Source: Cenarchaeum sp.
GTDB taxonomy: Archaea; Thermoproteota; Nitrososphaeria; Nitrososphaerales; Nitrosopumilaceae
Direction of reading: 5' to 3'
Length of the DNA: 64,000 nt
Assembly (NCBI GenBank): GCA_963692915.1
Contig: OY843584.1
Span: 640,001 to 704,000 of the forward strand
The notes under the pieces were generated by a model that was given only the letters and a program-made list of their open reading frames with translations, was not told where the DNA came from and did not search any database. The translations under genes were made by a program, and so were the position numbers. Below, piece by piece: positions 1 through 23,259 of this stretch; position 1 is the stretch's first letter; every line of letters starts with the position of its first letter.

Positions 1-3000
1 GCCAAAGTTCACGCGCGAGTGCACTTGTCTGATCGTGTGCGTGGCAGCTTCGGGGGCTATGGTAAGCGTGAAGGTATGGACCTGGCCGATTGAGCCACTC
101 GACACTATACTGGCTACGCCGTGCACAGGCTCGGTGTATATTGTCAGCTGATGCGTGTTTCCCGGTGGGCGAAACACTTGGAGGAACTCTGGAGGCACGG
201 TGTCTATGACGGCGTTGCCGCCGGACGTAATGTCCGACTGGGTCAGTTCCACGTCAGTCGCGGGGTTTGCCCCCGTTGCGCGTATGGTAAACTCGAATGG
301 GGCGTTGTCGTCGGCGGCGTCCACCACGAACGAGTGTGACCACGTCCTGTCGTCGGTGTCGCCGGCGTTGCCCATCGCCGTCGGCGCGCTTGTCCTGTGC
401 GTGCCCGGCACCGTTATCGTCGGTGCCGGCGACGTCACGATGTCCTCGCTGAACGTGACGTCGAGTGTGATCCTGTCACCGGCGTTTGCGTACTGGGAGT
501 TTGGCCCCGTCCTGTCCGTGAACGAGCCGCTAGCCTCGTCTGCGACGGTCAGCGTGAGCGGGTACGCCGAGAGCGGCGCGTCATCCGCAATGTCGTTCGT
601 TGCCGTGTTGGCCGCCAGGCCATTGGCTGCCGCAGACGTGTCAAGTATGTCCGACATCATGGAGGCAGGGACGTCATAGCCCAGCGCGGGCGGCGTGACG
701 GTCGTGTCGCCTGTGCCCCAGCCGCTTGCGATCACGGTCGACTCGGCCAGCGTGAGCGTGAGCGTGCGCCCGACAAGCTCCGCTGTTCCAAAGTCTGTGC
801 CCTCCGTGACGGCCGAGGCGAGCTCTGTTGCCGTGGGCAGTGCGGGCGGGGTCGTCGCCGTCGCATAGTGGTACCAGCGCGAGGCGTCCGGCCCGCCGGC
901 GGCGGCCGTGACGTCCTCGTCAAACGTGACCTCTATTGACCTGGGCGAGACCGTCTTGGCCGTAAAGAGCGGCGGCAGGCCGTCAATTGCCGTCGTGCGC
1001 CCCGCGATGGGCGTGCCGTCAGAGGCCAAGAGCACCGGCATTGTCTGGCCCGAGGCCGGCCTGTACGCGATGTGGGGGGTGGCATCAGAGGCCTGCGCGT
1101 CATACCCGATGTAGAACGTGAGCGGCTCGGTGTCGGTGCCGGAGCAGATGCTGGTAATGTCAAACGGCGTGGCTGACACCGCCGCCGGGGCGCCGCCGCT
1201 CGTGCACACAGCCGAGAACGCGGTGGCCTGCGTCCCGCCGGTTCCGTCACGCGCCGTGCCGACAAACCACTCGTCGAGGTGGATGTTGCCCGTGACCGTG
1301 CTGGTGAACACGATCCTGACATAGGTCGAGTCTGCCGCCCTGTGGGTCGTCGCCGTGTATGCGGCCGGCGGGATTATCTCCAAATACTCTTGCGTCACCT
1401 GCGTGCCGGCCGCAAGCGCATTGGGCGCCGTGGCCTTGTCCGTGACTTGGCCGAGGCGGATCATGTAGGTGGCTCCAAGTGTCGCATCACTCCCGAGGTT
1501 CATGCGCACAAAGTTATCCGAGCCGGGCTGCGTGAGGCTGTCCACGCCAAGGTCAGGCCTGATGCTCCACCCTGCAGTCGTGGATGGCAGCTCGACGCCT
1601 TCGGTGAACGTCACGTGCACGGTTCTGAGCGAGTGGAACGTGACAGAGACTATGGAGGGCACGAGCCTGTCCGGAACCATCACCGTTGAGCCGCTGGCCA
1701 GGGGGTTGCCGGCCCCGTCACTCAGTCCACTGCCCATATACGTCACAGTCGGCGCAAAGCTAGTGTCAACGTCCGCATCGGCGTACGCTATGGTCACGAG
1801 GTCGCGTGCCGAGTTGAGGGTCGCGCTCGTGACTGTGACTGTGGTCGTGCCCTCGGCGACTCCCCAGTCTGCTGAACCCACCGTTGCGCTTCTGGGCAGG
1901 TTCTCGGACAGCTTTACAGTCAGCGACGTGGCTGACGTCGTCCTCGTGTCAGCGTCTGTGAGCATTGTGGGAGGCGTGCGGTCTATGCTGACGCGGTATC
2001 CGGCACCTGCTATGGAGCTGCCGTCAGCATTAGTCGCGCGGGTCGTCAGGTCGGCGTGCGTGAATGTTGCCGCGCTTCCCTCAGCGTCCGTAACGGTGAT
2101 GCTGAACGTGACGTCACCTTCTGGCGAGCTGCTCGTCACGCTGTGCGAATAGATGTACCGTAGGGGGTTGGCCTGATCTGGCCTGAACACGCTCGTGCTA
2201 GTCACCGGCGAGCCCGAGTCCGTAAAGAACATCGCGGTGCCAAGAGCCGCCGTGTTACTGACTGTGGCGCTCACGGGAATGAGCGTGCTGCCGACGTAGA
2301 GCGGCTCGGTGACTGTTATGACAACCCACACATTGTCATTCAGGCGAGCAGGATTCGCGAGGTAGGGACTGTTTGAGGGGGTAGAGGCCTGCTTTCTCAT
2401 GTGCAGCGAGTCTCTGGCTGCCAGTGCGGGCGGCGCGCCGTCACCGGCCTCAGTCGAGTACGACAGCACGGCATTCACGCCATCCGTCAGGGTTCCGGCC
2501 ACATACATGACAGACGGCGTGGCCGCCGTCGAGGAGAGCGGCCCGTGCGTGATGAGGAGCTCCGTGACGGCAGGGCTCGACGGTATGGCCGGCGTGACTG
2601 CGTCACCTGCCCCTGCCGAGGTCTCCGGCGTTGCAGTCACCTTGCCGGAGGTCGCCACAGTCTCCACGCGCGATATGTCCAGCGCCACATTGCCTGCGTC
2701 ACTGGCCGCGTCGTTCTCGGTGACCGTCCAGTTCATCGTGTCAAGCGTGCCCCCAAGGCTGCCATCAAACGTGACCCTTGTTGTGGTCAGCGTCTGTGTC
2801 TCGGCCGTAAACGAGTCCGCAGTCGTGATCATGGCCGACTCTTCTGCGCCCACCGCGTTGGCAGGCTCGGCCATGTCCGCTATATCATAGTCTGGAATCA
2901 CCGTGTACTCCCTGTCAGCCATGATCGCCGAGCCGAGGCTGAGTGTGTACGTGGACAGTGTTTCGCGCATGGCGGACAGCACTTGTATCCCCACGGGGGA

Positions 3001-6000
3001 GGTGGAGGGGGAGCCGTCGTCTTCTTGCACAACCCAATTGTTGTCCGTGCCTTCGGTGCCCGCGACGTACGGGTTGGACGTGCCCTCTATGTTCTCCACA
3101 AACGTGACGGGCTCGGTGAACGTGACGTGCAGCGAGGTCGGCGTGGTTATCACGGCTGCCCTTATCTCCGGGGGCGCCGTGTCAGCGGCGGTGGCCTGGC
3201 TTGTCGTCAACACTGTAACGCCATAGGTCAGGTCGCCATCAGTGGCCGTGTATGTCACCTTTGGCGTCGAGGCCGTCGAGGCCAGGCCGTCGTGCGTTAG
3301 GATGATCGAGCGGCGGAGCAGCTCGGCAGGGCCTTCGAGAGTCCCAGTCGCCGCCGAGACTGCCGTGACGCGCCTGTCCGTGCCGGCCTCGGTCACGGCC
3401 CAGTCGTCGGCATCCAGTGTGCCGCCCGGCTGGAGCGGGAACGTCACGGCGATTGTCCTCGAGTCTATCGTCCTGGCCGTAAAGGCCGCCGGCGGGGCGT
3501 CCCCAAATGCCGCTGACACCGAGCGCTCCGTGACTGCGTTGCCCTGCGCGTCGGCCAGTCCGGTCGACGGCAGGCTGACTGTGTGCTCGACGCCAGTCGT
3601 GGCCGCAGAGGCCAGCGTGATGGTGAGCGTGTTCGTGCCTGCGTTGTACGCCGGCGATCCCGCTGCCGGCGTCACGGTGTCCGGATCGCTGCCGGCGTCG
3701 TCCCCGTCAGGCACGGTCACGGCGTACGTCAGGGTATCTATCGTCCCCGTGTTGGCCATCGCCTCGCCAAAGTTGACCGTGATCGTGTCAGCCGCGCCAA
3801 ACGAGGCCACAGGCGTCGGAGGGGCGCCGTCTGCGGCCATCCTTGCCACCAGCGCGGAGAGCGCATTGCCCACAGTGTCCACGATCCCCGGCGGGGCGTT
3901 CGAACCGGTCGGCACCGTGTAGGTGACCGGCGGCGTGGCCCCAGTCGACGCCGTGTCCGCATGATACAGCGTTAATGCGCCAGAGGGCTGGCTGCCGGCA
4001 TGCGAGGCCTGATGCACTCCAACTTGCCATCCAGCGGCGCGCTCTCCGGCGACAGGAAGCACGACGGCCTCGCTGAACGTAATGTCCGTCCCGGTGCGGC
4101 TCACAGTCTTTGCCGTGTACGTCGGCGGCATGTTGTCAACTGCCTCGGCGTCGTGATACGGCACGGAGAGTCCCTGGATGGCCGACGGGGTACCGCTCAC
4201 CCCGGGGGGCAGGCCGATTTGGGGGATGAGGTTGTGCCTCACATTTGGCGTGGATCCCGTCGATGAGAGCGGCGCGTGCGTGATTGTCATCTCGGTCGCC
4301 GTGTTCGATGGAGACAGCTTAATTGTGGGAAGGAGTTGCGATTGAGCCACAAACACGGACGCGGTGCCCAGCATGAGTGAGGATATCTGCCTCCTCTCGG
4401 ACGTCTGCGGATCACCGTCATCATCATCAGTCACTATCCAATGGCCAAGGTTGAGAAAGCCGCTAGTCAGCGGCGGGCCAAAGAACGACACAGTCGTGCT
4501 CGTCGGCGAGTTTGTCACTGCCGTGAATGGCGGCGCAGTCGCCATGACAGTCGTGGTCGTCAGGGCGTTGCCAGACGTGTCGGCCAGTCCCGTGGACGGC
4601 AGTGCCACCGCGTACACGTCGCGGTGTGTCGCCGTGCCGGCCAGCATCAGCTCCAGCGTGTGCGTGTGGGGATTGTACTCGTGTGGCCCGGACAGCGTCA
4701 CTGCTGTCGAGTCCTCGGTCACCGTGTAGGTGAGGCCCGCTATCGTCTCCGGACTGGCAAGGGCCTCGCTAAAGGCCACATTGATCACGCCGGGTGCCCC
4801 AAATGACGCGCTAGCCGTGGGCCCGATGCCGTCGGTGAGGGGCACAGACGATCCGGTGCGCAGGACGTTGCGCCCTGACGCGTCAACGACCCTGTTGGAG
4901 GCCGTGTCGGATCCCGTGTACAGCAGTGCCGTGCCGGCGGCCAGGTCGGTAAAGTCCAGTGCCTGTGTGCGCGTGAGCGTGATCCTGTCGGCGGCGACAT
5001 GGCCCGAGTCAAACGTTATGCCGCCGCCAATGGTCCACTCTGAGCCCGTGAGGACAATATTGGCGTCGACAGACTTTGAGAGCGTCGCGCTCACCTGCGT
5101 TGGCGAGTCGAGTGTCGCCGAGACCAGCGTCATCGGGGTGCCATCAACGACCGTTTTTGGCGGCGGTATCTCACGGGTGCGATCAACCAACATCAGTTCA
5201 TCCAGCGTGAACGGGTCGGTGTCCATCGGGTCGCCGCCAGAGTCGGCCAGGGCCGTCTGTCCTGCCAAAAGCGTCGCCGGCTTTGCGAACATGATGCCCG
5301 GCATTGATGTCAAATCCAAATTCGATATTGACTCGTGCCTTAGCGTAAACGCAGTCGCCGAGCTGAGCTCGACTGTCGGCGAGCGCAGCAGGTCGACTGT
5401 GCTGTGCTCGCCGGCCCTGACTGACTGGATCTCCACGGTGACCGGACCGTCAGACGTCATGCCCGCGAGGCTCCAGTCAGCGGCGCGCAGCGTCCCGCTC
5501 ACGGCCTCGTCAAGCCTGACCACCGTCGTGCGGTCGCCCGTCAAGAGCGCCACGGAGATCTCGGGGGCAGGCGAGTTAACGACCGAGATCCCGGATTTCC
5601 CAGCGGACTGGTTTGGCGGCGTGGCCCTATCCGCAAAGTTCTGCGCATCGGGAATGTATTCGCCGCTCTTGAGGCGCTGTGGCAGTGTCCCAACCACCTC
5701 GTTGGGGTTGGTCGGCGAGACCATGAGATTGGAGCCCCCAACAGAGCCTGCAACAGGTCCTGTTGTGCCGGCCGCGGTGTGCACATGTATAACGGACTCT
5801 GGAAGCACAGTGACAGGGCCACTGAATGTGACTCTCACGCTCGTGCCATCACTGCTAACAGATGGGGCAAAAGTGGTAATGCTCTCCTTGTCGACTGCGA
5901 CGATATCCCACACCCCGGCGCCCAGGTCCGTGCCGCCAAACGCTAGACCCCCAGTGGCCGGTGAGGTGTACCTGATCGTCGGCGTCTCATCAGGACCCAA

Positions 6001-7392
6001 GGCGCCAGAAAAGGCAACGCGAATGTCAAAGTCTAGCCTGTTATCTATCGTGGACGTGACACCTCTACCAGCGGATGAAAAGGGATGTCCAACTGCCGTA
6101 ACGGGTATTTCCCTCGTAGAATCAGGGAGGTTGATGATGACGAACTCGGATGCGCGAATCGTGCTGCCGTCCGCCCTGGACTTGAGAACTGCAAAATAGC
6201 TGGTATCGCCGGTCTTGTCCACACGGAACGGCGGCGTGTGCGTCAGTGTGCACGTGGCAGCGCACGTTGCGGGGTCAAATGGGGTGCCAGCGCTGTTCTC
6301 GAATGTCGGCGCGATGGTGTACACGACGCCGGGGATCGCATTGGCGCCTAGCGTGGCCGTGACGATCATGGCGGTAGTACGCGCAACACTCGACACGGTG
6401 ATCACGTCTGGCAGGGTGTCTGCGTCATGGGGAGTTAACGTGTTGTCAGGCGCCGTGACCCCAAGGTTGGACGTGGTGGCGGTGGACATGTCGATGGTGT
6501 CGTCAAACGTCATGCGAATCGTCTTTGAGCCCGTAAACTCTGCAGAGCTCAAAACCAGCGGCGGCGTGTGCGTCAGTTCGCACGTGGCGCCGCACGTTGC
6601 GGGGTCAAATGGGGTGCCGGGGCCGTTTGCGAATGTTGGCGCGATTGTGTACACGACGCCGGGGATCGCATCGGCGCTTAGCGTGGCCTCGACATTCCTG
6701 GCGGTAGAACGGGAAACACTCGACACGGTGATCACGTCTGGCATGGTGTCTGCGTCATGGGGAGTTAACGTGTTGTCAGGCGCAGTGACTGCCATGTTGG
6801 ACGTAGTGGCGGTGTCAGTGGCGATAGTGTCCACGAACTTCATGAGAATCGTCCTTGGGCCCGTAAACTCTGCTGAGGACAGAACATTCGCGCGCACGAG
6901 CACGTTGGCAGTGCTGCCTGACGTGGTGTCTTGCCAATTTATCAAGTTGGCTCCCGATGTTGGGCTCACGTTTGGGGGAGTTGCCGTGTCCCTGGCCACG
7001 ATGGTAAAGGTGAGTGTGAAACCACCGGTGTCAGCGGCATCTATAGTGAACGTGTGCCGCCAGCTCCGGTCATTGCTGTCGGCGGTGTTGACCATGTCCA
7101 CGGCCGTCGGCGTCCTGTGCGCTCCAGGGACCACTATCGTCGGCGCCGGCGATGTCGCGACGTCCTCGTCAAACGTCACGTCTATGGTAATCCTGTCACC
7201 GGCGTTAGCCCAGTGCGCAAGACCTCCAGTGCGATCCACAAAGCTGCTGCCAGTATTGTCGGCCACGGTGACCGTGAGGACGGTGACCCCCGGAGGATCC
7301 GTGTCTGCCGTTTGGGCCGTCGCACCGCTGACAGAGGCGGCAAGAAAGAGCGACATGATCGCAAACGCCAGTGTTGGCACTGCAGCCCGCAT
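1..7392 (-). CDS. Giant secreted Ig-like-repeat surface protein, paralog 1 (3' end beyond window edge, >=2464 aa)
   Basis: ATG at 7392 gives MRAAVPTLAFAIMSLFLAASVSGA, the same signal peptide as 8032..16905. It is colinear and largely near-identical to that gene down to position ~120. Absent from the ORF track, consistent with no stop codon inside the window. Confidence 0.88.
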   Translation of the reverse strand, partial: MRAAVPTLAFAIMSLFLAASVSGATAQTADTDPPGVTVLTVTVADNTGSSFVDRTGGLAHWANAGDRITIDVTFDEDVATSPAPTIVVPGAHRTPTAVDMVNTADSNDRSWRHTFTIDAADTGGFTLTFTIVARDTATPPNVSPTSGANLINWQDTTSGSTANVLVRANVLSSAEFTGPRTILMKFVDTIATDTATTSNMAVTAPDNTLTPHDADTMPDVITVSSVSRSTARNVEATLSADAIPGVVYTIAPTFANGPGTPFDPATCGATCELTHTPPLVLSSAEFTGSKTIRMTFDDTIDMSTATTSNLGVTAPDNTLTPHDADTLPDVITVSSVARTTAMIVTATLGANAIPGVVYTIAPTFENSAGTPFDPATCAATCTLTHTPPFRVDKTGDTSYFAVLKSRADGSTIRASEFVIINLPDSTREIPVTAVGHPFSSAGRGVTSTIDNRLDFDIRVAFSGALGPDETPTIRYTSPATGGLAFGGTDLGAGVWDIVAVDKESITTFAPSVSSDGTSVRVTFSGPVTVLPESVIHVHTAAGTTGPVAGSVGGSNLMVSPTNPNEVVGTLPQRLKSGEYIPDAQNFADRATPPNQSAGKSGISVVNSPAPEISVALLTGDRTTVVRLDEAVSGTLRAADWSLAGMTSDGPVTVEIQSVRAGEHSTVDLLRSPTVELSSATAFTLRHESISNLDLTSMPGIMFAKPATLLAGQTALADSGGDPMDTDPFTLDELMLVDRTREIPPPKTVVDGTPMTLVSATLDSPTQVSATLSKSVDANIVLTGSEWTIGGGITFDSGHVAADRITLTRTQALDFTDLAAGTALLYTGSDTASNRVVDASGRNVLRTGSSVPLTDGIGPTASASFGAPGVINVAFSEALASPETIAGLTYTVTEDSTAVTLSGPHEYNPHTHTLELMLAGTATHRDVYAVALPSTGLADTSGNALTTTTVMATAPPFTAVTNSPTSTTVSFFGPPLTSGFLNLGHWIVTDDDDGDPQTSERRQISSLMLGTASVFVAQSQLLPTIKLSPSNTATEMTITHAPLSSTGSTPNVRHNLIPQIGLPPGVSGTPSAIQGLSVPYHDAEAVDNMPPTYTAKTVSRTGTDITFSEAVVLPVAGERAAGWQVGVHQASHAGSQPSGALTLYHADTASTGATPPVTYTVPTGSNAPPGIVDTVGNALSALVARMAADGAPPTPVASFGAADTITVNFGEAMANTGTIDTLTYAVTVPDGDDAGSDPDTVTPAAGSPAYNAGTNTLTITLASAATTGVEHTVSLPSTGLADAQGNAVTERSVSAAFGDAPPAAFTARTIDSRTIAVTFPLQPGGTLDADDWAVTEAGTDRRVTAVSAATGTLEGPAELLRRSIILTHDGLASTASTPKVTYTATDGDLTYGVTVLTTSQATAADTAPPEIRAAVITTPTSLHVTFTEPVTFVENIEGTSNPYVAGTEGTDNNWVVQEDDGSPSTSPVGIQVLSAMRETLSTYTLSLGSAIMADREYTVIPDYDIADMAEPANAVGAEESAMITTADSFTAETQTLTTTRVTFDGSLGGTLDTMNWTVTENDAASDAGNVALDISRVETVATSGKVTATPETSAGAGDAVTPAIPSSPAVTELLITHGPLSSTAATPSVMYVAGTLTDGVNAVLSYSTEAGDGAPPALAARDSLHMRKQASTPSNSPYLANPARLNDNVWVVITVTEPLYVGSTLIPVSATVSNTAALGTAMFFTDSGSPVTSTSVFRPDQANPLRYIYSHSVTSSSPEGDVTFSITVTDAEGSAATFTHADLTTRATNADGSSIAGAGYRVSIDRTPPTMLTDADTRTTSATSLTVKLSENLPRSATVGSADWGVAEGTTTVTVTSATLNSARDLVTIAYADADVDTSFAPTVTYMGSGLSDGAGNPLASGSTVMVPDRLVPSIVSVTFHSLRTVHVTFTEGVELPSTTAGWSIRPDLGVDSLTQPGSDNFVRMNLGSDATLGATYMIRLGQVTDKATAPNALAAGTQVTQEYLEIIPPAAYTATTHRAADSTYVRIVFTSTVTGNIHLDEWFVGTARDGTGGTQATAFSAVCTSGGAPAAVSATPFDITSICSGTDTEPLTFYIGYDAQASDATPHIAYRPASGQTMPVLLASDGTPIAGRTTAIDGLPPLFTAKTVSPRSIEVTFDEDVTAAAGGPDASRWYHYATATTPPALPTATELASAVTEGTDFGTAELVGRTLTLTLAESTVIASGWGTGDTTVTPPALGYDVPASMMSDILDTSAAANGLAANTATNDIADDAPLSAYPLTLTVADEASGSFTDRTGPNSQYANAGDRITLDVTFSEDIVTSPAPTITVPGTHRTSAPTAMGNAGDTDDRTWSHSFVVDAADDNAPFEFTIRATGANPATDVELTQSDITSGGNAVIDTVPPEFLQVFRPPGNTHQLTIYTEPVHGVASIVSSGSIGQVHTFTLTIAPEAATHTIRQVHSRVNFG
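6230..6880 (-). repeat. Internal tandem duplication (~330-bp period, ~110-aa domain) in paralog 1
   Basis: GGCGGCGTGTGCGTCAGT...CACGTTGCGGGGTCAAATGGGGTGCC occurs at ~6230 and ~6560. Only one copy of this domain is present in paralog 2 (~16075-16390). Confidence 0.85.
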
Positions 7393-7415
7393 ACTGCCGC
7401 CCTTTCAACATACGA

Positions 7416-7424
7416 GTATATAAC
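7416..7424 (-). promoter_or_regulatory. Putative TATA box of paralog 1
   Basis: GTTATATAC on the minus strand, 24-32 nt upstream of the ATG; same position as in paralog 2. Confidence 0.65.
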
Positions 7425-7451
7425 ACAATTGGTGGGTTTGCGCCCAAAATG

Positions 7452-7470
7452 CCCCCCCCCCCCCCCCCCC
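7452..7470 (-). repeat. G19 homopolymer (C19 on +) upstream of paralog 1 promoter
   Basis: 19 consecutive C flanked by CGCCCAAAATG and ATTATACGGCAT. Confidence 0.9.
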
Positions 7471-8031
7471 ATTATACGGCATGCCCCGACCTAGCCGCAG
7501 AGCCTTTTGCGAACCTTGGCTTGCCAAGCAGTATCGTTCGGGTTTCAGCAATGCTCGGCGCATCAGACTCAGAGTCGCTACGCTCGTCGTTTTCCATGTG
7601 GCAGCATGACTTAATTTCAGTGTGAAGTGCTGGGCCGTGCCCTGCTTTGCCCACGAATAGACGCGGGCAGCAGCTCCTGGGAACGGCACGGCATGAAATT
7701 CCAGAGGCGGCCAACAGGCCCTGTCATGTCGCCGCGCCGGGATATCCCCGGTATACTGATGTGCGCCTTTGGCGCCCCTGCAAAAGGATCACATGCGGGA
7801 TGAGCCGTGCCGGGCTTGCGCCCTCCGGGGCGCGCTCGCCGCCGCCGGAATCGCGCGTCCTGCCCGGGATGGGCTTGCGTCGGCACGGTGTCCCGGATGC
7901 CGGGTTTGGCTGTGCCGCAGGGCCTGGCGCCAAACGGGCCTGGCGGTGCCGCCTGGGCAGAACCGCCAGTCCCGAGATCAGCAGGCTGCGATGCGCGATG
8001 GCGCGCCGTCGCACACGCGCATGCCGCGCAG

Positions 8032-11000
8032 CTATTCCGGGGGCGGCGCAGGGTACATCTCTAGGAGCGCAAGCTCGGCGAGGTTTATCTCGTGGGCGAT
8101 CTTTGCGCGGAGGCGCTCGAGGTACTCCTTTTGGTCCTCGGGCTCCGGGGAGGCGACATAGGCCGGTTCGGCAGCCGGCGCGGCCGGCACAACGCCCATG
8201 GCGCGCAGGTGCTCCTCGGCGATCGCGCGCTCGGACGCGATGAGCTCAGCAAAGCTGTCGGTGCCGCGCGCCCAGCCGTGCTGCGTCGCGCGATCCTCCT
8301 CGTACATCGACTCGTCGATCTCGTGGTGCAGCGAGGCGAGGTTGCGCAGCGGCTCGTACGTGCCGGCCGGGGTGATGCGGTAGACGCGGTACTCGCCGTC
8401 GAGCATGTACGTCACGTGGCGCGTGTCATAGTCGTACGTCCCGTCGCCGTCGGCATCGACGTTGCCGGCTATGAGCGGGTAGAGCACGAGCGCCCCGCCG
8501 TTGACCTCGATGCCGTGGCTCGGGTTTAGCGACTCGCCGGTCACGTGGACGCCGTGGTTGAAAAAGTTCTGCCACGAGTTGCGCCTCTCGTCCCAGACGA
8601 CCGTCGAGACGACGTCAAAGTTGAGGGGCTCGCGGAACGTGTGGTGTATCGTGACTATGCGGCACTCGGCCTCCGAGCCTGGCATGCACGCGCCGATCTC
8701 CGAGCTCGCGCGCAGCGTCTCGGCGTCTATCGTGTCGACTGCGCCGCCTACCGAGGCCGTCGCGTTGCCGTTGCCGTACGGCAGGCTCACCCTTATCTCG
8801 GCGCCCGACTCGCCAAAGTGCTGCCCGCGCCCCAGGCCAAAGGCCAGGCCGACGTGCCTGACGTTGAGCGGGCCCGTGTCCTCAAAGACCTTTATGATCG
8901 CGACGTTCTCGACTCCTGTCTCCACGGTTATGAGCGGCATGGGCGTGTAATAGTACTCGGCATCCACGGCCTCTCCGTTGTACGAGAACCCCTGGCTCAC
9001 GCGCCTGGTCCCCGTGGAGTCGACTCCCAGCGTCGGCGGCGTGCAGTCATCGCAGCCGTCCCCGCCGCCGCCGCTGACGCCTGGTGCAGTGGCGCCAAAG
9101 CGCGTAAAGTGGTTTGTCCATATCACGAGATCCCCGCCATCGCGCACGCGGCACTCATTGAGCTCGATGGCGCCAGAGCCAATATCTCCGGGCACTTCAG
9201 AGGCGTCACGCGATTCACACTCGGGTATGGCGTTAACGGTTAAGCCATTTGGGCCGGACAGCCAGAACGCGTGAACCGCAGCGCCGGCACCGAGCAGCCT
9301 TATTGCCACAGGCCTGTCAAATGTCATCGGAGCCGCATCGCCGCTCTTGCCTAACTCGACTAGCGTCGCCGGCGGCCTGGAGGCCAGAACCCTGGTCACT
9401 GCCTCGTTGGCCGCAGTCTCCTCCTCGTCTGCTCCTATCGCTGCGACGTACTCGGTGTCGCGCGCCGGGGGAGGGAGTCGCACGACCACTACGGACTCGT
9501 CAGTGTCAACATCTCCAAAGTCTTCGACCACCGTCGACTGGCGTAATGTGACAGTCACCCCGTCCACGTTCACCGTTATCGTTCCAGCTAGTGTGTCACT
9601 GCGTTGCTCAGTCAGGCGGATGATCGTGCTCTCGCCCAACCCGCCTCTCTCGCCCTCCGGCGCCTCGATTGTGTACGAGCCTGCAGGTGGCACGGAGAAC
9701 TCGGGCACAGCAAGAGTGCTTCCAGAGCCGGCTCTGACCGGAGTCGTTTGCTCACGGTTCACCGTGTAAACAAGCGGATTGTCGGCCCTGTCAGTCAGGC
9801 CGGTTAAAGTGAGTGAGTATGTGCCAGTGCCAGCTATGACCGCCTGGAATTGCTTGATCGTGTCCGTGGGAGCGTCGGCAGGTACGGTGAACATGTTGTT
9901 ATGGACCGGGCCAAAGGTGTGCGCCGTGTCTGGGCCCTGTGACACTGCCATGGCTGTGCCGTGCACAGGCTCGGTGAATATCAATCGCTGATCAGAATCA
10001 TGATCATTCATGGGTGGGCGAACCACGTAGAGGAGCTCTGGAGGCACGGTGTCTATGACGGCGTTGCCGCCGGACGTAATGTGCGATTGGGTCAGTTCCA
10101 CGTCAGTCGCGGGGTTTGCCCCCGTTGCGCGTATGGCAAACTCTAATGGAGCATTGTCGTCGGCGGCGTCCACCACGAACGAGTGTGACCACGTCCTGTC
10201 GTCGGTGTCGCCGTCGTTGCCCATCGCCGTCGGCGCGCTTGTCCTGTGCGTGCCCGGCACCGTTATCGTCGGTGCCGGCGACGTCACGATGTCCTCGCTG
10301 AACGTGACGTCGAGTGTGATCCTGTCACCGGCGTTGGCGTGCTGGGAGTTTGCCCCCGTCCTGTCCGTGAACGAGCCGCTAGCCTCGTCTGCGACGGTCA
10401 GCGTGAGCGGGTACGCCGAGAGCGGCGCGTCATCCGCAATGTTGTTCGTTGCCGTGTTGGCCGCCAGGCCATTGGCTGCCGCAGACGCGTCAAGTATGTC
10501 CGACATCATGGAGGCAGGGACGTCATAGCCCAGCGCGGGCGGCGTGATGGTCGTGTCGCCTGTGCCCCAGCCGCTTGTGATCACGGTCGACTCGGCCAGC
10601 GTGAGCGTGAGCGTGCGCCCTTCAAGCGTCGCGGTTCCAAAGCTTGTGCCCGCCGTGACGGCCGCGGCGAGCTCTGTTGCCGTGGGCAGTGCCGGCGGGG
10701 TCGTCGCCGTCGCATAGTGGTACCAGCGCGAGGCGTCCGGCCCGCCTGCGGCGGCAGTGACGTCCTCGTCAAACGTGACCTCTATTGACCGAGGCGAGAC
10801 CGTCTTGGCCGTAAAGAGCGGCGGCAGGCCGTCGATTGCCGTCGTGCGCCCCGCGATGGGCGTGCCGTCAGAGGCCAAGAGCACCGGCATTGTCTGGCCC
10901 GAGGCCGGCCTGTACGCGATGTGGGGGGTGGCATCAGAGGCCTGCGCGTCATAGCCGATGTAGAACGTGAGCGGCTCGGTGTCGGTGCCTTGGCATATGC

Positions 11001-14000
11001 TGGTAATGTCAAACGGCGTGGCTGACACCGCCGTCGGGGCGCCGCCGCTCGTGCACACAGCCGAGAACGCGGTGGCCTGCGTCCCGCCGGTTCCGTCACG
11101 CGCCGTGCCGACAAACCACTCGTTGAGGTGGATGTTGCCCGTGACCGTGCTGGTGAACACGATCCTGACATAGGTCGAGTCCGCCACCCTGTGGGTCGTC
11201 GCCGTGTATGCGGCCGGCGGGATTATCTCCAGATACTCTTGCGTCACCACCATGCCGGCCGCAAGCGAATTGGGCACCGTGGCCTTGTCCGTGACTTGGC
11301 CGACGCGGATCATATAGGTGTCCCCGATTGTCGCATCACTGCCGAGGTTCATGCGCACAAAGCGATCCGAGCCGGGCTGCGTGAGGCTGCTCACGCCAAG
11401 GTCAGGCGTGATGCTCCACCCTGCAGTCGTGGATGGCAGCTCGACGTCTTCGGTGAACGTCACGTGCACGGTTCTGTGCGAGGGGAACGTGACAGTGTCT
11501 ATGGAGGGCACGAGCTTGTCCGAAACGATCACCTCTGAGCCGCTGGCCAGGGGGTGGCCGGCCCCGTCACTCAGGCCAGTGCCCATATACGTCACAGTCG
11601 GCGCAAAGCTAGTGTCAACGTCCGCATCCTCGTACTCTATGTTCACTCGGTCGCGCGCCGCGTTGAGGGTCGCGCTCGTGACTGTGACTGTGGTCGTGCC
11701 CTCGGCGACTGCCCAGTCTGTTGTAAGCACCGTTGCGCTTCTGGGCAGGTTCTCGGACAGCTTTACAGTCAGCATCGTGACCGACGTCGTCCTCGTGTCA
11801 CCGTCTGTGACCATTGTGGGAGGCGTGCGGTCTATGCTGACGCGGTATCCGGCACCTGCTATGGAGCTGCCGTCAGCATTAGTCGCGCCGGTTGTCAGGT
11901 TATCATGCGTGTATGTCGCCATGTTCCCCTCAGCGTCAGTCACGGTGAGCGTGAACGTGACGTCAACCTCTGGCGAGGTGCCCGTCACGGTGTGTGAATA
12001 GTTGTACTGGTAACGGGTCGGATCAGAGGAGGCACTGCGCTTCAGACCGCCAGCTGCCGAGGCCGTCGTCGACGAGCTCTCTCCCGGAAAGAGCGTGATG
12101 GTGGCGCGGGCAGGATCATAGCTTGCAGAATCTGTCAGGATAGCCGTGCTGCCGACGTATAGCGGTTCAGTGAATATTCCTATAACCCACACATTTTCAG
12201 CTAGGAGGGCAGGTTTCGCAAAGCCCGTCGTGTTGGGCGCATTCTCTTGCGCCCTCATGTACAGCGAGTCTCCGGCTGCCAGTTCGGGCGGCGCGCCGTC
12301 ACTGGCTTCAGTCGAGTACGACAGCACGGCATTTCCGCCATCCGTCAGGGTTCCGGCCACATACGTGACAGACGGCGTGGCCGCCGTCGAGGAGAGCGGC
12401 CCGTGCGTGATGAGCAGCTCCGTGACGGCAGGACTCGACGGTATGGCAGGCGTGACTGCGTCACCGGCCCCCGTCGTGGTCTCGGGCGTTGCAGTCACCG
12501 AGCCGGAGGTCGCCACAGTCGCCACGCGCGATATGCCCAGCGCCGCGTCCGGCGAGCCGGCAATGTCGTTCTCGGTGACCGTCCAGTTCCTCGTGTCAAG
12601 CGTGCCTCCAAGGCTGCCATCAAACGTGACCTTTGTTGTGGTCAGCGTCTGCGTCTCGGCCGTAAACGAGTTCGCAGGCGTGATCATGGCCGACTCTACT
12701 GCGCCCACCGCGTTGGCAGGCTCGGCCATGTCCGCTATATCATAGTCTGGAATCACCACGTACTCCGTGCCAGCCACGATCGGCGAGCCGAGGCTGAGTG
12801 TGTACGTTAACGGTGTTGGGCGCGTGGCGGACAGCACTTGTATCTCCACAGGGGTGACGGAGATGCTGCCTTCTTGTTCCACAACCCAGTCGTTGTCCGT
12901 GCCTTCGATGGCCGCGACGTACGGGTTGGACGTGCCCTCCATGTTCTCCACAAACGTGACGGGCTCGGTGAACGTGACGTGCAGCGAGGTCGGCGTGGTT
13001 ATCACGGCTGCCCTTATCTCCGGGGGCGCCGTGTCGGCGGCGACTGCCAGACCTGTTGGCACAGGCGTACTGCCGTAGTACAGGTCACCACTCGCCGAGC
13101 TGTATGTCACTTTTGGCGTCGAGGCCGTCGAGGCCAGGCCAACGTGAGTCAGGACGTACGAGCGGGCGAGCACTTCCATATCTTCAAAGATACCAATTGC
13201 CGACGTGACTGCCATGACCATCCTGTCCGTGCCGTCCTCGCTCACTTTCCAGTCGTTGACATCGAGTGTGCCGGTCGGGCGCGACGGAAATGTCACGGCG
13301 ATGTGATCTGAGTCTAGCGTCCTTGCAGTAAAGACTGCCGGCGGGGCGTCCCCGTTTGCAGCTGACACCGAGCGCTCCGTGACTGCGTTGCCCTGCGCGT
13401 CGGCCAGTCCGGTCGACGGCAGGCTGACCGTGTGCTCTATTCCATTAACGGCGTTGGAGGCCAGCGTGATGGTAAGCGTGTTTGCGCTTGCGTCATACGC
13501 CGGCGATCCCGTTGCCTGCGGTACGGTGTCCGGAGCGTCACCATCATCGCTTCCATCAGGCATTGTGACTGTGTACGCCAGGCCGGCTATTGTCCCCGCG
13601 TTGGCCATCGACTCGCCAAAGTTGACTGTGATCATGTTATCCGCGCTAAACGAGGCAACGGGTGCTGGCGGCGTGCCGTCTGTGGCCTGAGGGGCGGGCA
13701 GCGCATTAAGCGTTTTGTCCGCAAGATCCACGATCCCCGGCGGGGCACTATCGCCAGTCGGCACCGTATAGGCAACTACCGGCATGGCAGCAGTTGAGCC
13801 CGTGTCCGGGTGTGTCAGTGTGAGTGCGCCGTTGAGCTGGCTGCCAGCAGCCGAGGCGCCAAACCCGCCAACAGTCCATCCGGCAGCGCGCGAGCCGACG
13901 GCGGGCAGGACGACGGCCTCGCTGAACGAGACGTCCGTCTCGGTTCGGCTCACAGTCTTTGCCGTGTACGTCGGCCGCACTGCGTCGACGGACTCGGCGG

Positions 14001-16905
14001 TGAAATGTGGCACGTTGAGCCCAAGTGGGTTAACCACAGAGCCAATGCTAATGTTGTGCCTGACAGCCGGTGTGGATCCCGTCGAAGAGAGCGGCGCGTG
14101 CGTGATCGTCATCTCTGTTGCCGTGTTCACAACTAGTGTAGCGATCAAAGCCTGCCCATGGAGTCGGCTCGCAGATTTGGTGCCTAGCACAATTGTCGTT
14201 ACCTGTCTATCCTCGGATGTCATCGAATCACCGTCGTCGTCGTCAGTCACCACCCACTGTCCCACGTTGAGAATATTAGACGGTGCGCCAAAGAACGACA
14301 CAGTCGTGCTCGTCGGCGAGTTCGTCACTGCCGTGAATGGCGGCGCACGAGTCACAACACTCGTGGCCGTCAGGGCGTTGCCGGACGTGTCGGCCAGTCC
14401 GGAGGACGGCAGTGTCACCGTGTACTCATCGTAGCGTAACGCCGGGTCAGTCAACATGAGCTCCAGCGTGCGTGTCGCCGGATTGTACTCGTGCGATCCT
14501 GACAGCGTCACGGTTTCTGTAGGCCCAAGCACGCCAAAGTCGTTTGTCGAAGGCTTTTTGCTCGCCGTGTAGGTGAGGCCCGCTATCGTCTCCGGACTGG
14601 CAAGCTCCTCGCTAAAGGTCACTTTGATCACGCTCGACGTCCCAAATGACGCGCTCGCCGTGGGCCCGATGCCGTCGGTGAGGGGCACAGACGATCCGGT
14701 GCGCAGGACGACGTGTCCCGACGCGTCAACGACCCTGTTGCTGGCCATATCGGATCCCGTGTACAGCAGTGCCGTGCCGGCGCCCAAGTGGGTAAAGTCC
14801 AGCGCCTGCGTGCGCGTGAGCGTGATCGTGTTGGTGATGACAACGCCCGAGTCAAACGTTATGCCGCCGCCAATGGTCCACTCTGAGCCCGTGAGGACAA
14901 TATTGGTGTCGACAGACCTTGAGAGCGTCGCGCTCACCTGCGTTGGCGAGTCGAGTGTCGCCGAGACCAGCGTCATCGGGGTGCCGTCGACGACCGTTTT
15001 TGGCGGCGGTATCATGTCGATGCGATTAACCGGCATCAGTTCATCCAGCGTGAACGGGTCGCTGTCCATCGTGTCGCCGCCCGAGTCGGCCAGGGCCGTC
15101 TGTCCTGCCGGAAGCGTCGCGGGCTCCCTGAACAGGATGCCCGGCAGTGATGTCAACTTCGCGTCCAACATTGACATGTGCCTTAGCGTAAACGCAGTCG
15201 CCGAGTCGAGCTCGACTGTTGGCGAGCGCAGCAGGTCGACTGTGCTGTGCTCGCCGGCCCTGACTGACTGGATCTCCAGTGTAACCGGACCGTCAGACGT
15301 CATGCCCGCGAGGCTCCAGTCAGCGGCGCGCAGCGTCCCGCTCACGGCCTCGTCAAGCCTGACTACTGTCGTGCGGTCGCCCGTCGAGAGCGCCACAGAG
15401 ATCTCGGGGGCAGGCGAGTCAACGAGCGAGACCCCGCCACTCCCGCTGCTGCGGTTTGGCGGCGTGGCTCCATCCCCAAACTGAGTCGCCTCGGGATAGT
15501 ATTCGGCGCTCTTGAGGCGCTGTGGCAGTGTCCCAACCACCTCGTTGGGGTTGGTCGGCGAGACCATGAGATTGGAGCCCCCAACAGAGCCTGCAACAGA
15601 TCCTAATGAGAGGCGTTCGGTGTACACTTTGATAACGGAATCTGGAAGTATAGTGACGGGGGCATTGAATCTGGCGCTCACGGTCGTGCCATCACGGCTA
15701 ACAGATGCGCTAATAGTGCCAATGCCAACCTTGTCGAGTGCGACGATCTCCCACACCCCGGCGCCCAGGTCCGTGCCGCCAAACACTAGACCCCCGGTGG
15801 CCGGTGAGGTGTACCTGATCGTCGGCGTCTCATCAGGACCCAAGACGTCACTAGAGGCAATTCTAAGGTCAAAGTCTAGCCTCCCAGTTAGCGTTTCCGT
15901 GGGGCCTCTAGGAGGTGTAAAGGGATTTCCAAGTTCCGTAACGGGTATCTCCCTTGTAGAATCAGGGAGGTTGATGATGGTGAACTCGGATGCGCGAACC
16001 GTGCTGCCGGTTGCAGCGGACCTGAGAACTACTTTGTAGAAACCTTCGCCGGTCTTTTCCACACGGTCGAACGGCGGCGTGTGCGTCAGTGTGCACACGG
16101 CGCCGCACGGTGAGGGGCCAATTGGGAGATCGGCGTTGCCGGTGAATGTCTGCGCGATGGTGTACACGACACCGGGGATCGCATTGGCGCTTAGCGTGGC
16201 TATGACGGCCCTGGCGCCTTGACGCATAACACTCGACACCTCGATCACGTCGGGCATGGTGTCCGCGTCATGTGGGGTTACCGTGTCATCAGGCGCCGTG
16301 ACCGCAAGGTTGGACGACACGACAGTATCACTGGCGACACTGCCTGAGAACCCCATGCGAATCGTCTTTGAGCCCGTAAACTCTGCAGAGGACAGATTAG
16401 GCGCGTTCAAGACCACATTGGCAGCGTTGCCAGACGAGAGGCCTTGCCATGTTATCGCCCCTGCCCCCGATGAGGGGTTTGTGTTTGGGGTAGTTGCCGT
16501 GTCCGTGGCCACGATGTTAAAGGTGAAGGTGAACGGACCGCTGTCATTGGCGGCTATGACGTGCGTGTGCGACCAGGACCGGTCATTGCCGTCGGCGGTG
16601 TTGACCATGGCCACGCCCGACGGTGACCTCTGCGCGCCAGGGGCCGTTATCGTCGGCGCCGGCGATGTCACGACGTCCTCGTCAAACGTCACGTCCACGG
16701 TAATCCTGTCACCGATGCTCGCCCAGAACGCACGACTTCCCGTGCGATCCACAAAGGTGCCTTCAACATTGTCGGCCACGGTGACTGTGAGGACAGTGAC
16801 CCCCGGAGGCGTCGTGTCTGCCGCCTGGGCCGACGCGCCGCTGACAGAGGCGGCAAGGAAGAGCGACATGATCGCAAACGCCAATGTTGGCACTGCAGCC
16901 CGCAT
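8032..16905 (-). CDS. Giant secreted Ig-like-repeat surface protein, paralog 2 (2957 aa)
   Basis: N-terminal signal peptide and Thr/Ala/Ser/Asp-rich beta-sandwich-like repeats (PP.FTA.T...VTF). The N-terminal domain recurs near aa ~2190. The C-terminal region DLVIWTNHFTRF...CDDCTPPTLGVDSTGTRRVSQGFSYNG resembles the C-terminal module of large Nitrosopumilaceae surface proteins. Confidence 0.9.
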   Translation of the reverse strand: MRAAVPTLAFAIMSLFLAASVSGASAQAADTTPPGVTVLTVTVADNVEGTFVDRTGSRAFWASIGDRITVDVTFDEDVVTSPAPTITAPGAQRSPSGVAMVNTADGNDRSWSHTHVIAANDSGPFTFTFNIVATDTATTPNTNPSSGAGAITWQGLSSGNAANVVLNAPNLSSAEFTGSKTIRMGFSGSVASDTVVSSNLAVTAPDDTVTPHDADTMPDVIEVSSVMRQGARAVIATLSANAIPGVVYTIAQTFTGNADLPIGPSPCGAVCTLTHTPPFDRVEKTGEGFYKVVLRSAATGSTVRASEFTIINLPDSTREIPVTELGNPFTPPRGPTETLTGRLDFDLRIASSDVLGPDETPTIRYTSPATGGLVFGGTDLGAGVWEIVALDKVGIGTISASVSRDGTTVSARFNAPVTILPDSVIKVYTERLSLGSVAGSVGGSNLMVSPTNPNEVVGTLPQRLKSAEYYPEATQFGDGATPPNRSSGSGGVSLVDSPAPEISVALSTGDRTTVVRLDEAVSGTLRAADWSLAGMTSDGPVTLEIQSVRAGEHSTVDLLRSPTVELDSATAFTLRHMSMLDAKLTSLPGILFREPATLPAGQTALADSGGDTMDSDPFTLDELMPVNRIDMIPPPKTVVDGTPMTLVSATLDSPTQVSATLSRSVDTNIVLTGSEWTIGGGITFDSGVVITNTITLTRTQALDFTHLGAGTALLYTGSDMASNRVVDASGHVVLRTGSSVPLTDGIGPTASASFGTSSVIKVTFSEELASPETIAGLTYTASKKPSTNDFGVLGPTETVTLSGSHEYNPATRTLELMLTDPALRYDEYTVTLPSSGLADTSGNALTATSVVTRAPPFTAVTNSPTSTTVSFFGAPSNILNVGQWVVTDDDDGDSMTSEDRQVTTIVLGTKSASRLHGQALIATLVVNTATEMTITHAPLSSTGSTPAVRHNISIGSVVNPLGLNVPHFTAESVDAVRPTYTAKTVSRTETDVSFSEAVVLPAVGSRAAGWTVGGFGASAAGSQLNGALTLTHPDTGSTAAMPVVAYTVPTGDSAPPGIVDLADKTLNALPAPQATDGTPPAPVASFSADNMITVNFGESMANAGTIAGLAYTVTMPDGSDDGDAPDTVPQATGSPAYDASANTLTITLASNAVNGIEHTVSLPSTGLADAQGNAVTERSVSAANGDAPPAVFTARTLDSDHIAVTFPSRPTGTLDVNDWKVSEDGTDRMVMAVTSAIGIFEDMEVLARSYVLTHVGLASTASTPKVTYSSASGDLYYGSTPVPTGLAVAADTAPPEIRAAVITTPTSLHVTFTEPVTFVENMEGTSNPYVAAIEGTDNDWVVEQEGSISVTPVEIQVLSATRPTPLTYTLSLGSPIVAGTEYVVIPDYDIADMAEPANAVGAVESAMITPANSFTAETQTLTTTKVTFDGSLGGTLDTRNWTVTENDIAGSPDAALGISRVATVATSGSVTATPETTTGAGDAVTPAIPSSPAVTELLITHGPLSSTAATPSVTYVAGTLTDGGNAVLSYSTEASDGAPPELAAGDSLYMRAQENAPNTTGFAKPALLAENVWVIGIFTEPLYVGSTAILTDSASYDPARATITLFPGESSSTTASAAGGLKRSASSDPTRYQYNYSHTVTGTSPEVDVTFTLTVTDAEGNMATYTHDNLTTGATNADGSSIAGAGYRVSIDRTPPTMVTDGDTRTTSVTMLTVKLSENLPRSATVLTTDWAVAEGTTTVTVTSATLNAARDRVNIEYEDADVDTSFAPTVTYMGTGLSDGAGHPLASGSEVIVSDKLVPSIDTVTFPSHRTVHVTFTEDVELPSTTAGWSITPDLGVSSLTQPGSDRFVRMNLGSDATIGDTYMIRVGQVTDKATVPNSLAAGMVVTQEYLEIIPPAAYTATTHRVADSTYVRIVFTSTVTGNIHLNEWFVGTARDGTGGTQATAFSAVCTSGGAPTAVSATPFDITSICQGTDTEPLTFYIGYDAQASDATPHIAYRPASGQTMPVLLASDGTPIAGRTTAIDGLPPLFTAKTVSPRSIEVTFDEDVTAAAGGPDASRWYHYATATTPPALPTATELAAAVTAGTSFGTATLEGRTLTLTLAESTVITSGWGTGDTTITPPALGYDVPASMMSDILDASAAANGLAANTATNNIADDAPLSAYPLTLTVADEASGSFTDRTGANSQHANAGDRITLDVTFSEDIVTSPAPTITVPGTHRTSAPTAMGNDGDTDDRTWSHSFVVDAADDNAPLEFAIRATGANPATDVELTQSHITSGGNAVIDTVPPELLYVVRPPMNDHDSDQRLIFTEPVHGTAMAVSQGPDTAHTFGPVHNNMFTVPADAPTDTIKQFQAVIAGTGTYSLTLTGLTDRADNPLVYTVNREQTTPVRAGSGSTLAVPEFSVPPAGSYTIEAPEGERGGLGESTIIRLTEQRSDTLAGTITVNVDGVTVTLRQSTVVEDFGDVDTDESVVVVRLPPPARDTEYVAAIGADEEETAANEAVTRVLASRPPATLVELGKSGDAAPMTFDRPVAIRLLGAGAAVHAFWLSGPNGLTVNAIPECESRDASEVPGDIGSGAIELNECRVRDGGDLVIWTNHFTRFGATAPGVSGGGGDGCDDCTPPTLGVDSTGTRRVSQGFSYNGEAVDAEYYYTPMPLITVETGVENVAIIKVFEDTGPLNVRHVGLAFGLGRGQHFGESGAEIRVSLPYGNGNATASVGGAVDTIDAETLRASSEIGACMPGSEAECRIVTIHHTFREPLNFDVVSTVVWDERRNSWQNFFNHGVHVTGESLNPSHGIEVNGGALVLYPLIAGNVDADGDGTYDYDTRHVTYMLDGEYRVYRITPAGTYEPLRNLASLHHEIDESMYEEDRATQHGWARGTDSFAELIASERAIAEEHLRAMGVVPAAPAAEPAYVASPEPEDQKEYLERLRAKIAHEINLAELALLEMYPAPPPE

Positions 16906-16928
16906 ACTGCCGCCTTCTCAACACGCGG

Positions 16929-16937
16929 GTATATAAC
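16929..16937 (-). promoter_or_regulatory. Putative TATA box of paralog 2
   Basis: GTTATATAC, 24-32 nt upstream of ATG 16905. Confidence 0.65.
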
Positions 16938-16964
16938 ACCATTTGTCGGTTTGCGCCCAAAATG

Positions 16965-16981
16965 CCCCCCCCCCCCCCCCC
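16965..16981 (-). repeat. G17 homopolymer (C17 on +) upstream of paralog 2 promoter
   Basis: 17 consecutive C with the same flanks as at 7452-7470. Confidence 0.9.
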
Positions 16982-21313: not shown

Positions 21314-21409
21314 GCTATGGCACCCCACAGACCCAGTCTGCTCCCCGCGTCACCATGACTCGGCATAATGGCCCAAATGATTTAACTGTTTTTGGAATTC
21401 CACGCGCGG

Positions 21410-23234: not shown

Positions 23235-23259
23235 AGGCAGATTCGTGCCCAACTGCGCA

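Follow-up and report, generated by a model that had tools for sequence, protein, structure and literature searches.

The two long poly-G tracts upstream of a pair of giant, putatively secreted protein paralogs in Cenarchaeum sp. appear to be hypermutable slipped-strand tracts of the contingency type and members of a genome-wide set of 15, a reading to which we assign a probability of roughly 0.55. Both lie in the window, i.e., the whole stretch of DNA that was analyzed (64 kb), in which the plus strand reads 19 C at 7452-7470 and 17 C at 16965-16981. These correspond to minus-strand poly-G, namely G19 (tract A) and G17 (tract B) on the sense strand of the downstream genes, both lengths being the values of one assembly. 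Each tract is located 59 nt upstream of the ATG of a giant ORF: paralog A (1-7392, minus strand; 3057 aa in the whole genome, the 3′ part of the gene extending past the start of the window) and, in tandem with it, paralog B (8032-16905, minus strand; 2957 aa).

The promoter regions of the two paralogs share the same architecture. On the sense strand, the G-run is followed by 27 nt, a TATA-like box (GTTATATAC), 23 nt, and the ATG (7390-7392 and 16903-16905, respectively). The first-pass annotation had placed G19 and G17 at an identical promoter position, which both the sequence and the alignment bear out, and the spacings it gave as about 28 and 24 nt agree with this count to within one base. 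The box (7416-7424 for paralog A and 16929-16937 for paralog B, minus strand) is identical across four aligned promoters from two species except for one base in the sister-species promoter of paralog B (G001_B), and archaeal promoter geometry suggests that it serves as a TATA box. The spacer between tract and box (7425-7451 for paralog A, minus strand), which starts with CATTTTGGGCGCAAACC on the sense strand, is almost unchanged among the same four promoters, and its opposite-strand motif GCCCAAAAT also adjoins the tract of a gene encoding 25,651 aa. Distal to the tracts, a block common to both paralogs and both species in the alignment (CCGTATAAT ... GCGGCTAGG, family D2; 7471-7515 and 16982-17026, minus strand) could possibly represent an upstream regulatory site. 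The upstream regions align from the ATG through the tract and for about 45 nt further (D1, 214 nt, 91% identity; D2, 59 nt, 86%), in agreement with the shared upstream block described earlier, and beyond the distal block the sequence at paralog A becomes paralog-specific. At tract B, the distal block sits in a divergent intergenic region whose other flank is a phosphoglycerate kinase gene (plus strand, GTG at 17314).

Within the 64-kb window, 18 overlapping G10 matches were detected, all inside the two focal tracts, in agreement with the earlier claim that no other run of this length is present. A mean of 0.13 matches was expected from 100 dinucleotide-preserving shuffles, and none of the shuffles reached 18. 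With regard to the proteins, paralog A has a signal-peptide-like N-terminus and is otherwise devoid of hydrophobic segments, and paralog B is 78% identical to it across residues 171-2957. No Pfam family was matched by either protein at E values up to 0.001, or by paralog B at E values up to 5. Ig-like repeats emerged from the ESM Atlas as a weak lead for the giant paralogs, with scores of 0.85-0.88 that fall below the 0.9 line.

In the 1.64-Mb genome, G/C runs of length 7 and 8 occur 44 and 3 times, respectively, and those of length 9 are absent, while 15 runs of 10-26 nt lie above this gap. The tracts therefore form a separate class rather than the tail of base composition. Nine of them are intergenic and six intragenic; eight of the nine intergenic tracts are at least 15 nt long, and the coding ones measure 10, 11, 11, 12, 15, and 26 nt. 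Wherever a tract lies no more than 132 nt from a start codon (six cases), the sense strand is the one that carries the G residues. Two properties of contingency loci are seen in the set, namely repeats of hypermutable length (roughly 8 or more for G/C runs) in promoters or the 5′ part of ORFs, and a multi-locus distribution that favors genes for surface proteins and restriction-modification. The genome-wide scan for long G-runs that had been proposed in the first-pass annotation has returned a 15-member class, beside giant-protein genes and inside DNA-modification genes.

Seven ORFs of at least 2000 aa are present in the genome, four of which have an intergenic tract upstream and three of which have none; all four tract-bearing giant ORFs have signal-peptide-like N-termini. 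In paralogs A and B and in an ORF of 5223 aa, the sense-strand G-run lies 27-49 nt upstream of a TATA-like box that is itself 23 nt before the start codon, and a comparable layout was found at the 25,651-aa ORF and at one locus (L025) of the sister genome.

All six intragenic tracts sit in DNA-modification or restriction genes. Four are in N6_N4_Mtase genes (genome positions 151307, 203807, 280081, and 319221, i.e., four of the ten loci of this family in the genome), one in dndB (1309677; DndB, E = 1e-110), and one in a gene for a PLD-SNF2 nuclease-helicase (1523591). Three of the coding tracts are within the first 16 codons. As assembled, the tracts at 151307 (C11), 280081 (C26), and 319221 (G12) disrupt the reading frame, which a +1/-2 or -1/+2 change repairs in silico to give ORFs of 857, 854, and 274 aa, respectively; the other three are in frame. 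In silico, a one-base change in length flips the frame at all six tracts, and at the four methyltransferase genes, which lie outside the window, the length of a repeat within the ORF sets the frame as in phasevarions. The gene at 203807 contains a second frameshift away from any long repeat, and this methyltransferase may therefore be simply decaying. Judged from gene content, the repertoire (giant secreted proteins, methyltransferases, dndB, and a nuclease-helicase) is classic for contingency loci.

It had also been proposed that the tracts act as G-quadruplex (G4) recombination initiators. In Neisseria, a G4 upstream of pilE starts gene conversion from silent pilS copies, and the present case resembles it in that G-rich DNA precedes a gene for a variable surface protein. 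If such a structure triggered conversion between paralogs A and B, a mosaic of similarity would result, and their nucleotide identity is indeed mosaic (43-100% by 150-nt window), with blocks of 95-100% alternating with blocks of 43-73%; a tract is also present at both paralogs. However, similar tracts occur at single-copy giant genes and in methyltransferase, dndB, and helicase genes, and a plain homopolymer differs from the G3-loop motif of the pilE type. Furthermore, paralogs A and B are each complete and have a promoter of their own, no match to the promoter block was found in the genome beyond these two loci, and no promoterless or silent donor cassettes were found there. Antigenic variation of the pilE type is very improbable here, and this part of the earlier proposal is not supported.

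A sister genome (G001) also has 15 tracts of at least 10 nt, seven of which are orthologous to those described above. Five of the seven, including both focal tracts, differ in length between the two species (17/21, 19/16, 17/18, 19/18, and 16/13, with the sister second), and two are equal (11/11 and 15/15). The ortholog of tract A is G16 followed by AGG, and that of tract B is G18. The flanks of the orthologous tracts are 87-100% identical, and at the four least diverged 3-kb loci two of the five gaps between the genomes touch a tract or its edge. In a run from another study (X5), one contig bridges 7255-7737, a span that includes tract A, with no differing letters and four gaps within this interval. 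The tract at 151307 has the same length in both genomes and is out of frame in both. Tracts found only in the sister genome are in or beside genes for an N6_N4_Mtase, a C-5 DNA methylase, a GmrSD_N restriction enzyme, a DUF4344 peptidase, and an Ig-like secreted protein.

Could sequencing or assembly have produced the tracts, for instance through dark-cycle poly-G or spurious joins? Homopolymer lengths are prone to error whatever the platform, and assembly errors of 1-2 bases could explain the 1-nt differences and single out-of-frame states. In addition, assembled contigs from four public runs are fragmented and break or mis-join at the tracts. A second genome, assembled independently, nevertheless has tracts at orthologous positions, the paralogs are homologous on either side of the run, and coding sequence continues across the intragenic tracts. 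An artefact is hardly credible and was rejected as regards the existence of the tracts, and it could apply to exact lengths at most.

The long-tract trait is restricted by lineage: runs of G12 or longer were detected in all four other genomes of the genus and in two of 26 other relatives searched. None of the 16 tracts in genomes G002-G005 is orthologous to a tract of the genome studied here, and what they share with it is a similar layout. In G005, tracts are located between the TATA-like box and the ATG of signal-peptide ORFs. When metagenome contigs were scanned with an 18-base anchor from the conserved spacer, none of 55 loci had an adjoining G-run, and these are thus taken as chance matches.

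The mutational background of the tracts allows a neutral explanation, in which unrepaired, strand-specific slippage expands short G-runs and the tracts persist only where they do little harm, namely between genes, in defence genes that the cell can do without, and at accessory giant genes. Regulation by the focal tracts would then be absent, and drift would account for their differences in length. In the single-contig genome (99.86% complete), no match to MutS_V or NucS_C was found, while the controls were matched in 11 and 6 of 14 genomes, respectively. In one relative (G251), all 42 tracts of G14 or longer obey a strand partition with two switches about half a genome apart (16 minus, 19 plus, and 7 minus), and several of them lie between direct repeats in very GC-rich intergenic DNA. 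In the genome studied here, 12 of the 15 tracts fit a similar partition, roughly at the turning points of the cumulative GC skew. Such a replichore-like orientation rule points to a mutational or replication constraint that needs no regulation. The second, unrelated frameshift in methyltransferase 203807 and the position of the focal tracts outside the core promoter are also in keeping with neutrality, and purifying selection by itself would likewise leave tracts in dispensable genes.

On the other hand, the placement of the tract relative to the TATA-like box is preserved between the paralogs and between the species, unlike the distal sequence, which diverges, and the layout of G-run, spacer, box, 23 nt, and start codon recurs at unrelated genes. 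Neutral slippage also does not readily account for tracts at four of the seven largest ORFs and four of the ten N6_N4_Mtase loci, or for the three coding tracts within the first 16 codons. Even if the tracts had arisen neutrally, those in coding regions would cause frequent on/off frameshifts. We regard the neutral explanation as rather unlikely, though it is the strongest of the rivals.

Another alternative is that poly(dG:dC) is a constitutive element that keeps the promoters of very long genes open, length being of importance only above a threshold. It might act through its structure or as a protein site, e.g., if archaeal histones or other chromatin proteins were kept off the DNA or if the non-template strand folded into a G-quadruplex. 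Eight of the nine intergenic tracts, at 15 nt or more, are long enough to fold into an intramolecular G4 with three tetrads, most coding tracts being shorter, and the sense-strand orientation of the six tracts near start codons is in line with such a role. However, this explanation leaves the tracts inside defence genes unaccounted for, the promoter tracts of the sister genome include lengths of 12-14, and three of the seven giant ORFs manage without a tract; it is therefore considered improbable.

Under the contingency reading, replication slippage would add or remove G residues in the run, and such changes would escape MutS/NucS-type correction, for which no domain was found. In the six coding tracts, a one-base change would shift the reading frame, so that the gene goes on or off at random; the targets would be the four N6/N4 DNA methyltransferases, dndB, and the PLD-SNF2 nuclease-helicase. 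In the promoter tracts, length would alter the distance and helical phase between the conserved distal block and the BRE/TATA core or, alternatively, the local DNA structure, and the transcription of each giant secreted protein would be set independently by its own tract. Graded (volume) control appears more likely at these promoters than strict on/off switching. A high switching rate, heterogeneity within the population, an effect on transcription, and adaptive value are what we infer from this arrangement. The possible length errors, the possible decay of gene 203807, the orientation rule, and the selective argument given above all count against the contingency reading, as do the location of the focal tracts ahead of the TATA box, which leaves the spacing of the archaeal core promoter untouched, and the unchanged length of two of the seven orthologous tracts.

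Several bacterial systems provide points of comparison. In porA and opc of Neisseria, the homopolymer lies inside a spacing-critical core promoter; the tracts described here are 27 nt upstream of the TATA-like box and hence outside the TATA-to-start interval, and the parallel drawn earlier with these genes fails. What stands of the proposed phase-variation switch is the conserved position, the changed lengths, and the multi-locus set, whereas neither core spacing of the porA/opc type nor G4 recombination of the pilE type could be upheld. In Bordetella fim2/fim3, fimbrial expression is set by a C-stretch that separates an activator site from the core promoter. The tracts described here are similar in being non-coding homopolymers with a conserved distal block on one side and the core promoter of a surface-protein gene on the other, and in differing in length between paralogs, but the transcription machinery here is archaeal and the distal block is a candidate site.

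The host-adapted species Campylobacter jejuni and Helicobacter pylori possess a phasome of multiple poly-G/C contingency loci and are devoid of functional mismatch repair; such systems are outlined in general terms in a review (PMC11868660). The archaeal set is similar in having many G/C homopolymers in a small genome in which MutS was not found, with tracts near the 5′ end of restriction-modification coding sequences and within or ahead of genes for surface proteins; the positions of the tracts are kept and their lengths vary among relatives. It differs in its archaeal TATA/BRE promoters with tracts upstream of the TATA box, in longer tracts (up to 26 nt), and in its targets, giant secreted proteins that reach 25,651 aa and whose switching is a prediction from sequence. 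Phase-variable DNA methyltransferases (mod genes) form the phasevarions of Haemophilus, Neisseria, and Helicobacter. They appear among the references of PMC11033074 and in the text of PMC13076061. The four N6_N4_Mtase genes, three of which are out of frame in the assembly, likewise contain a frame-setting repeat inside the ORF; unlike the mod genes, they encode archaeal beta-class N6/N4 methyltransferases with homopolymers, and one of the four has a second frameshift.

Phase variation by repeat slippage is textbook knowledge for bacterial pathogens and commensals. Among the titles and abstract openings covered by a literature search that included few subscription journals, no description of repeat-mediated phase variation in archaea was found, in agreement with the first-pass annotation, which was not aware of such a contingency locus in ammonia-oxidising archaea. 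Short poly-A/T tracts were reported in 18 archaeal genomes (PMC2831843), with neither Cenarchaeum nor long poly-G in the accessible part of that article. The 2025 review PMC11868660 asks whether it is really only pathogens that have multi-locus phase-variable genomes, and it lists archaeal phylogenies among the work still to come.

The genome studied here and its sister provide a concrete archaeal candidate set for this question, with 15 tracts each in the expected gene classes. For annotation, methyltransferase and defence genes of archaeal metagenome-assembled genomes whose reading frame breaks at a homopolymer may be in an off state rather than dead, and the strict strand rule of the tracts is a clue to how archaeal replication handles G-runs. 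As a more tentative proposal, which we consider possible but hold with less confidence than the contingency reading itself, a subset of the Nitrosopumilaceae including this Cenarchaeum-like genus may possess a true multi-locus archaeal phasome, in which replication-oriented poly-G tracts have been selected, set the expression of giant proteins, and switch DNA methylation, phosphorothioation, and restriction. If this is true, the promoter-upstream tracts would act stochastically on a TATA promoter, independently for each giant protein, by a promoter mechanism with no bacterial counterpart. Such a phasome would be without precedent in Archaea, and it would make the populations of these organisms bet-hedging.

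The two poly-G runs upstream of the giant paralogs belong to a set of 15 G-runs in their genome (G000), which we read, with a probability of about 0.55, as slippage-prone contingency loci, i.e., repeats that switch a gene by changing length. The window is positions 640001-704000 of a single contig of 1,644,826 bp (59.4% G+C), and the first-pass identification of the organism as an ammonia-oxidising archaeon is confirmed by a full-length archaeal SSU rRNA and an archaeal AmoA.

The paralogs lie in tandem on the minus strand: A (ORF 1..7392, 3057 aa in the full genome) and B (ORF 8032..16905, 2957 aa). Since neither has a Pfam family match, the N-terminal segment is the sole strongly hydrophobic one in both, and the Atlas search returned Ig-like leads only, all below threshold, the proteins are described as presumably secreted, with a surface location as a candidate. 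Their composition is high in Thr, Ala, Ser, Val and Gly. A and B share 78% identity across most of their length, and nucleotide identity in 150-nt windows forms a mosaic (43-100%), in which blocks of 95-100% (e.g., the last ~900 nt and gene nt ~6100-7290) are interspersed with blocks of 43-73%. This pattern (window 1-16905) suggests repeated gene conversion. A role of the G-runs as G4 recombination initiators, as at pilE, is considered very unlikely.

Tract A is C19 on the plus strand (G19 on the sense strand; 7452-7470) and tract B is C17 (G17; 16965-16981). On the sense strand, both loci consist of a common distal block, the G-run, a 27-nt spacer starting with CATTTTGGGCGCAAACC, then GTTATATAC, 23 nt, and the ATG. 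The upstream regions of A and B can be aligned from the ATG to ~45 nt past the tract and diverge further out, which bears out the equal promoter position noted at first pass. A G10 search of the window gives 18 overlapping matches, every one within the two runs (shuffles expect 0.13, and 0/100 reach 18), so that no further run of this length is indeed present there. The 9-mer GCCCAAAAT abuts three tracts directly (window 7442-7450 and 16955-16963; genome 1122870): at both focal loci it is on the antisense strand and faces the TATA box, and at the gene for a 25,651-aa protein it is on the sense strand, distal to the tract. These are 3 of its 21 copies in the genome. CGCGATCAT comes after two G000 tracts (genome 1122850 and 1126657) and after two in the sister genome (G001; loci L027 and L032). 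An A11 run (18619-18629) was also observed between two copies of the 22-nt direct repeat ACTCTGCTCTTTTGCCATACTG (window 18579-18667), just downstream of the phosphoglycerate kinase gene.

The proposed genome scan for long G-runs recovered a separate length class that recurs at giant ORFs: there are 44 G/C runs of length 7, three of 8, none of 9, and then 15 of 10-26. By our own sorting, nine are intergenic and six intragenic. Four intergenic tracts lie upstream of ORFs of 25,651, 5223, 3057 and 2957 aa (4/7 of the ORFs of at least 2000 aa), all four with a signal-peptide-like N-terminus. At the 5223-aa gene, G17 is followed by 49 nt, ATTAAATAC, 23 nt and the ATG; the TATA-to-start distance (23 nt) is identical to that of the focal genes. 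The ORF of ~25,600 codons (77 kb; G000:C1:1045958-1122913, outside the window), which begins with a signal-peptide-like segment and is preceded by a G19 tract, is among the longest prokaryotic ORFs known to us. Further simple repeats outside the window, (CTCCGAG)17 (123 nt upstream of a 1556-aa ORF), (AG)12 and (ACTCGCGC)5 (G000:C1:895444-895562, 844111-844134 and 87668-87707), are possible contingency loci of another repeat type.

With regard to the intragenic tracts, all six are within DNA-modification or restriction genes, comprising 4 of the 10 N6_N4_Mtase loci in the genome, dndB (E 1e-110), and the gene for a 1123-aa PLD+SNF2 helicase. In silico, the assembled length puts three methyltransferases out of frame (C11, C26 and G12), and with a +1/-2 or -1/+2 change the ORFs become 857, 854 and 274 aa long. 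Two of the three have an ATG ahead of the tract, by 36 or 16 nt, followed by a stop-free extension. The remaining three coding tracts are in frame. Length changes in coding tracts would act as simple frame switches by in silico frame arithmetic, presumably at a high rate.

G001 likewise has 15 tracts of at least 10, seven of them orthologous to tracts in G000, with flanks 87-100% identical. Five of the seven are unequal in length (G000 and G001, by G000 position): 151307 (11 and 11), 419733 (17 and 21), 647452, focal A (19 and 16, then AGG), 656965, focal B (17 and 18), 1122850 (19 and 18), 1126657 (16 and 13, as C13-T-C4), and 1631617 (15 and 15). Within the four least diverged 3-kb loci, 2 of 5 gaps are at a tract or its edge. 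The G001 tracts that lack an ortholog in G000 occur in or beside another N6_N4_Mtase, a C-5 DNA methylase, a GmrSD_N enzyme, a DUF4344 peptidase, and an Ig-like signal-peptide protein (G14, 28 nt, ATTATATAC, 23 nt, ATG); therefore, the tract-gene classes recur independently in this second genome. Within the genus, all four other genomes contain runs of G12 or longer, as do 2/26 other relatives searched. The left flank of a G13 tract in G001 (L030) has three similar matching copies in window 21086-23926 (genome 661086, 662113 and 663578), none with a tract of at least 10, so that tract presence differs between the species. In a sister genus (G005, L106-L108), ORFs with signal-peptide-like starts have three G12-G13 tracts placed downstream of a TATA-like box and before the ATG, in contrast to G000.

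Searches for MutS_V and NucS_C found no match in the 99.86%-complete G000, while matching 11/14 and 6/14 control genomes. Loss of mismatch repair raises the slippage rate at homopolymers, and slippage is presumably raised in G000 through the missing repair. Four public runs over the region gave many short, strain-mixed assembled contigs. One contig, from run X5, spans 7255-7737, with no differing letter and with 4 gaps somewhere along this interval; contig joints at 7470/7471 are poly-C ends alignable to either tract and uninformative on length. That the tracts are an artefact is hardly credible.

At least one tract of G14 or longer was detected in 37/301 genomes sampled from the class (including one match in an unpublished genome, G296), with 8 to 42 in a handful of same-family genomes. 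In one of the latter (G251, L109-L138), 42/42 such tracts fit a two-switch strand partition (the first 16 on the minus, the next 19 on the plus and the last 7 on the minus strand; switches about half a genome apart), C precedes 39/42, and several are flanked by direct repeats. In G000, 12/15 tracts are compatible with a similar partition, whose borders are near turning points of cumulative GC skew. The partition looks like a replication-direction rule. It shows the placement or orientation of tracts to be under the influence of a replication-linked process; this could be a bias in mutation, or G-runs could be selected against on one template. This strand rule favors the main rival, in which strand-specific expansion leaves tracts as a neutral by-product that is tolerated in dispensable genes. 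So does one of the tract-bearing methyltransferases (203807), which may be decaying because it has a second frameshift distant from any long repeat (between the PTQKPLELL and LVLDPFCG motifs; G000:C1:202600-202900, outside the window); an assembly error is the alternative explanation of that frameshift. However, tracts recur at giant genes and promoter geometry is conserved, the promoters of both paralogs in each of the two species (four in all) being near-invariant from tract to ATG and divergent distal of the tract; the rival is considered rather unlikely, but is the leading alternative.

In tract type, location and gene repertoire, the set agrees with contingency loci, and it resembles the poly-G phasomes (multi-locus sets) of Campylobacter and Helicobacter as well as phase-variable methyltransferases. 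In the portion of the open-access literature and bioRxiv consulted, phase variation through repeats is not described for any archaeon, consistent with the first-pass remark that no such locus was known to be described in ammonia-oxidising archaea. The porA/opc-type spacing model, named as a precedent at first pass, does not apply to the focal tracts, because they are upstream of the TATA box. Under the contingency-locus reading, their length might instead determine how far the conserved distal block lies from the BRE/TATA core and in which phase, or alternatively alter local DNA structure; a constitutive structural element is an unlikely explanation. Through focal tract length, each giant gene may be tuned separately.
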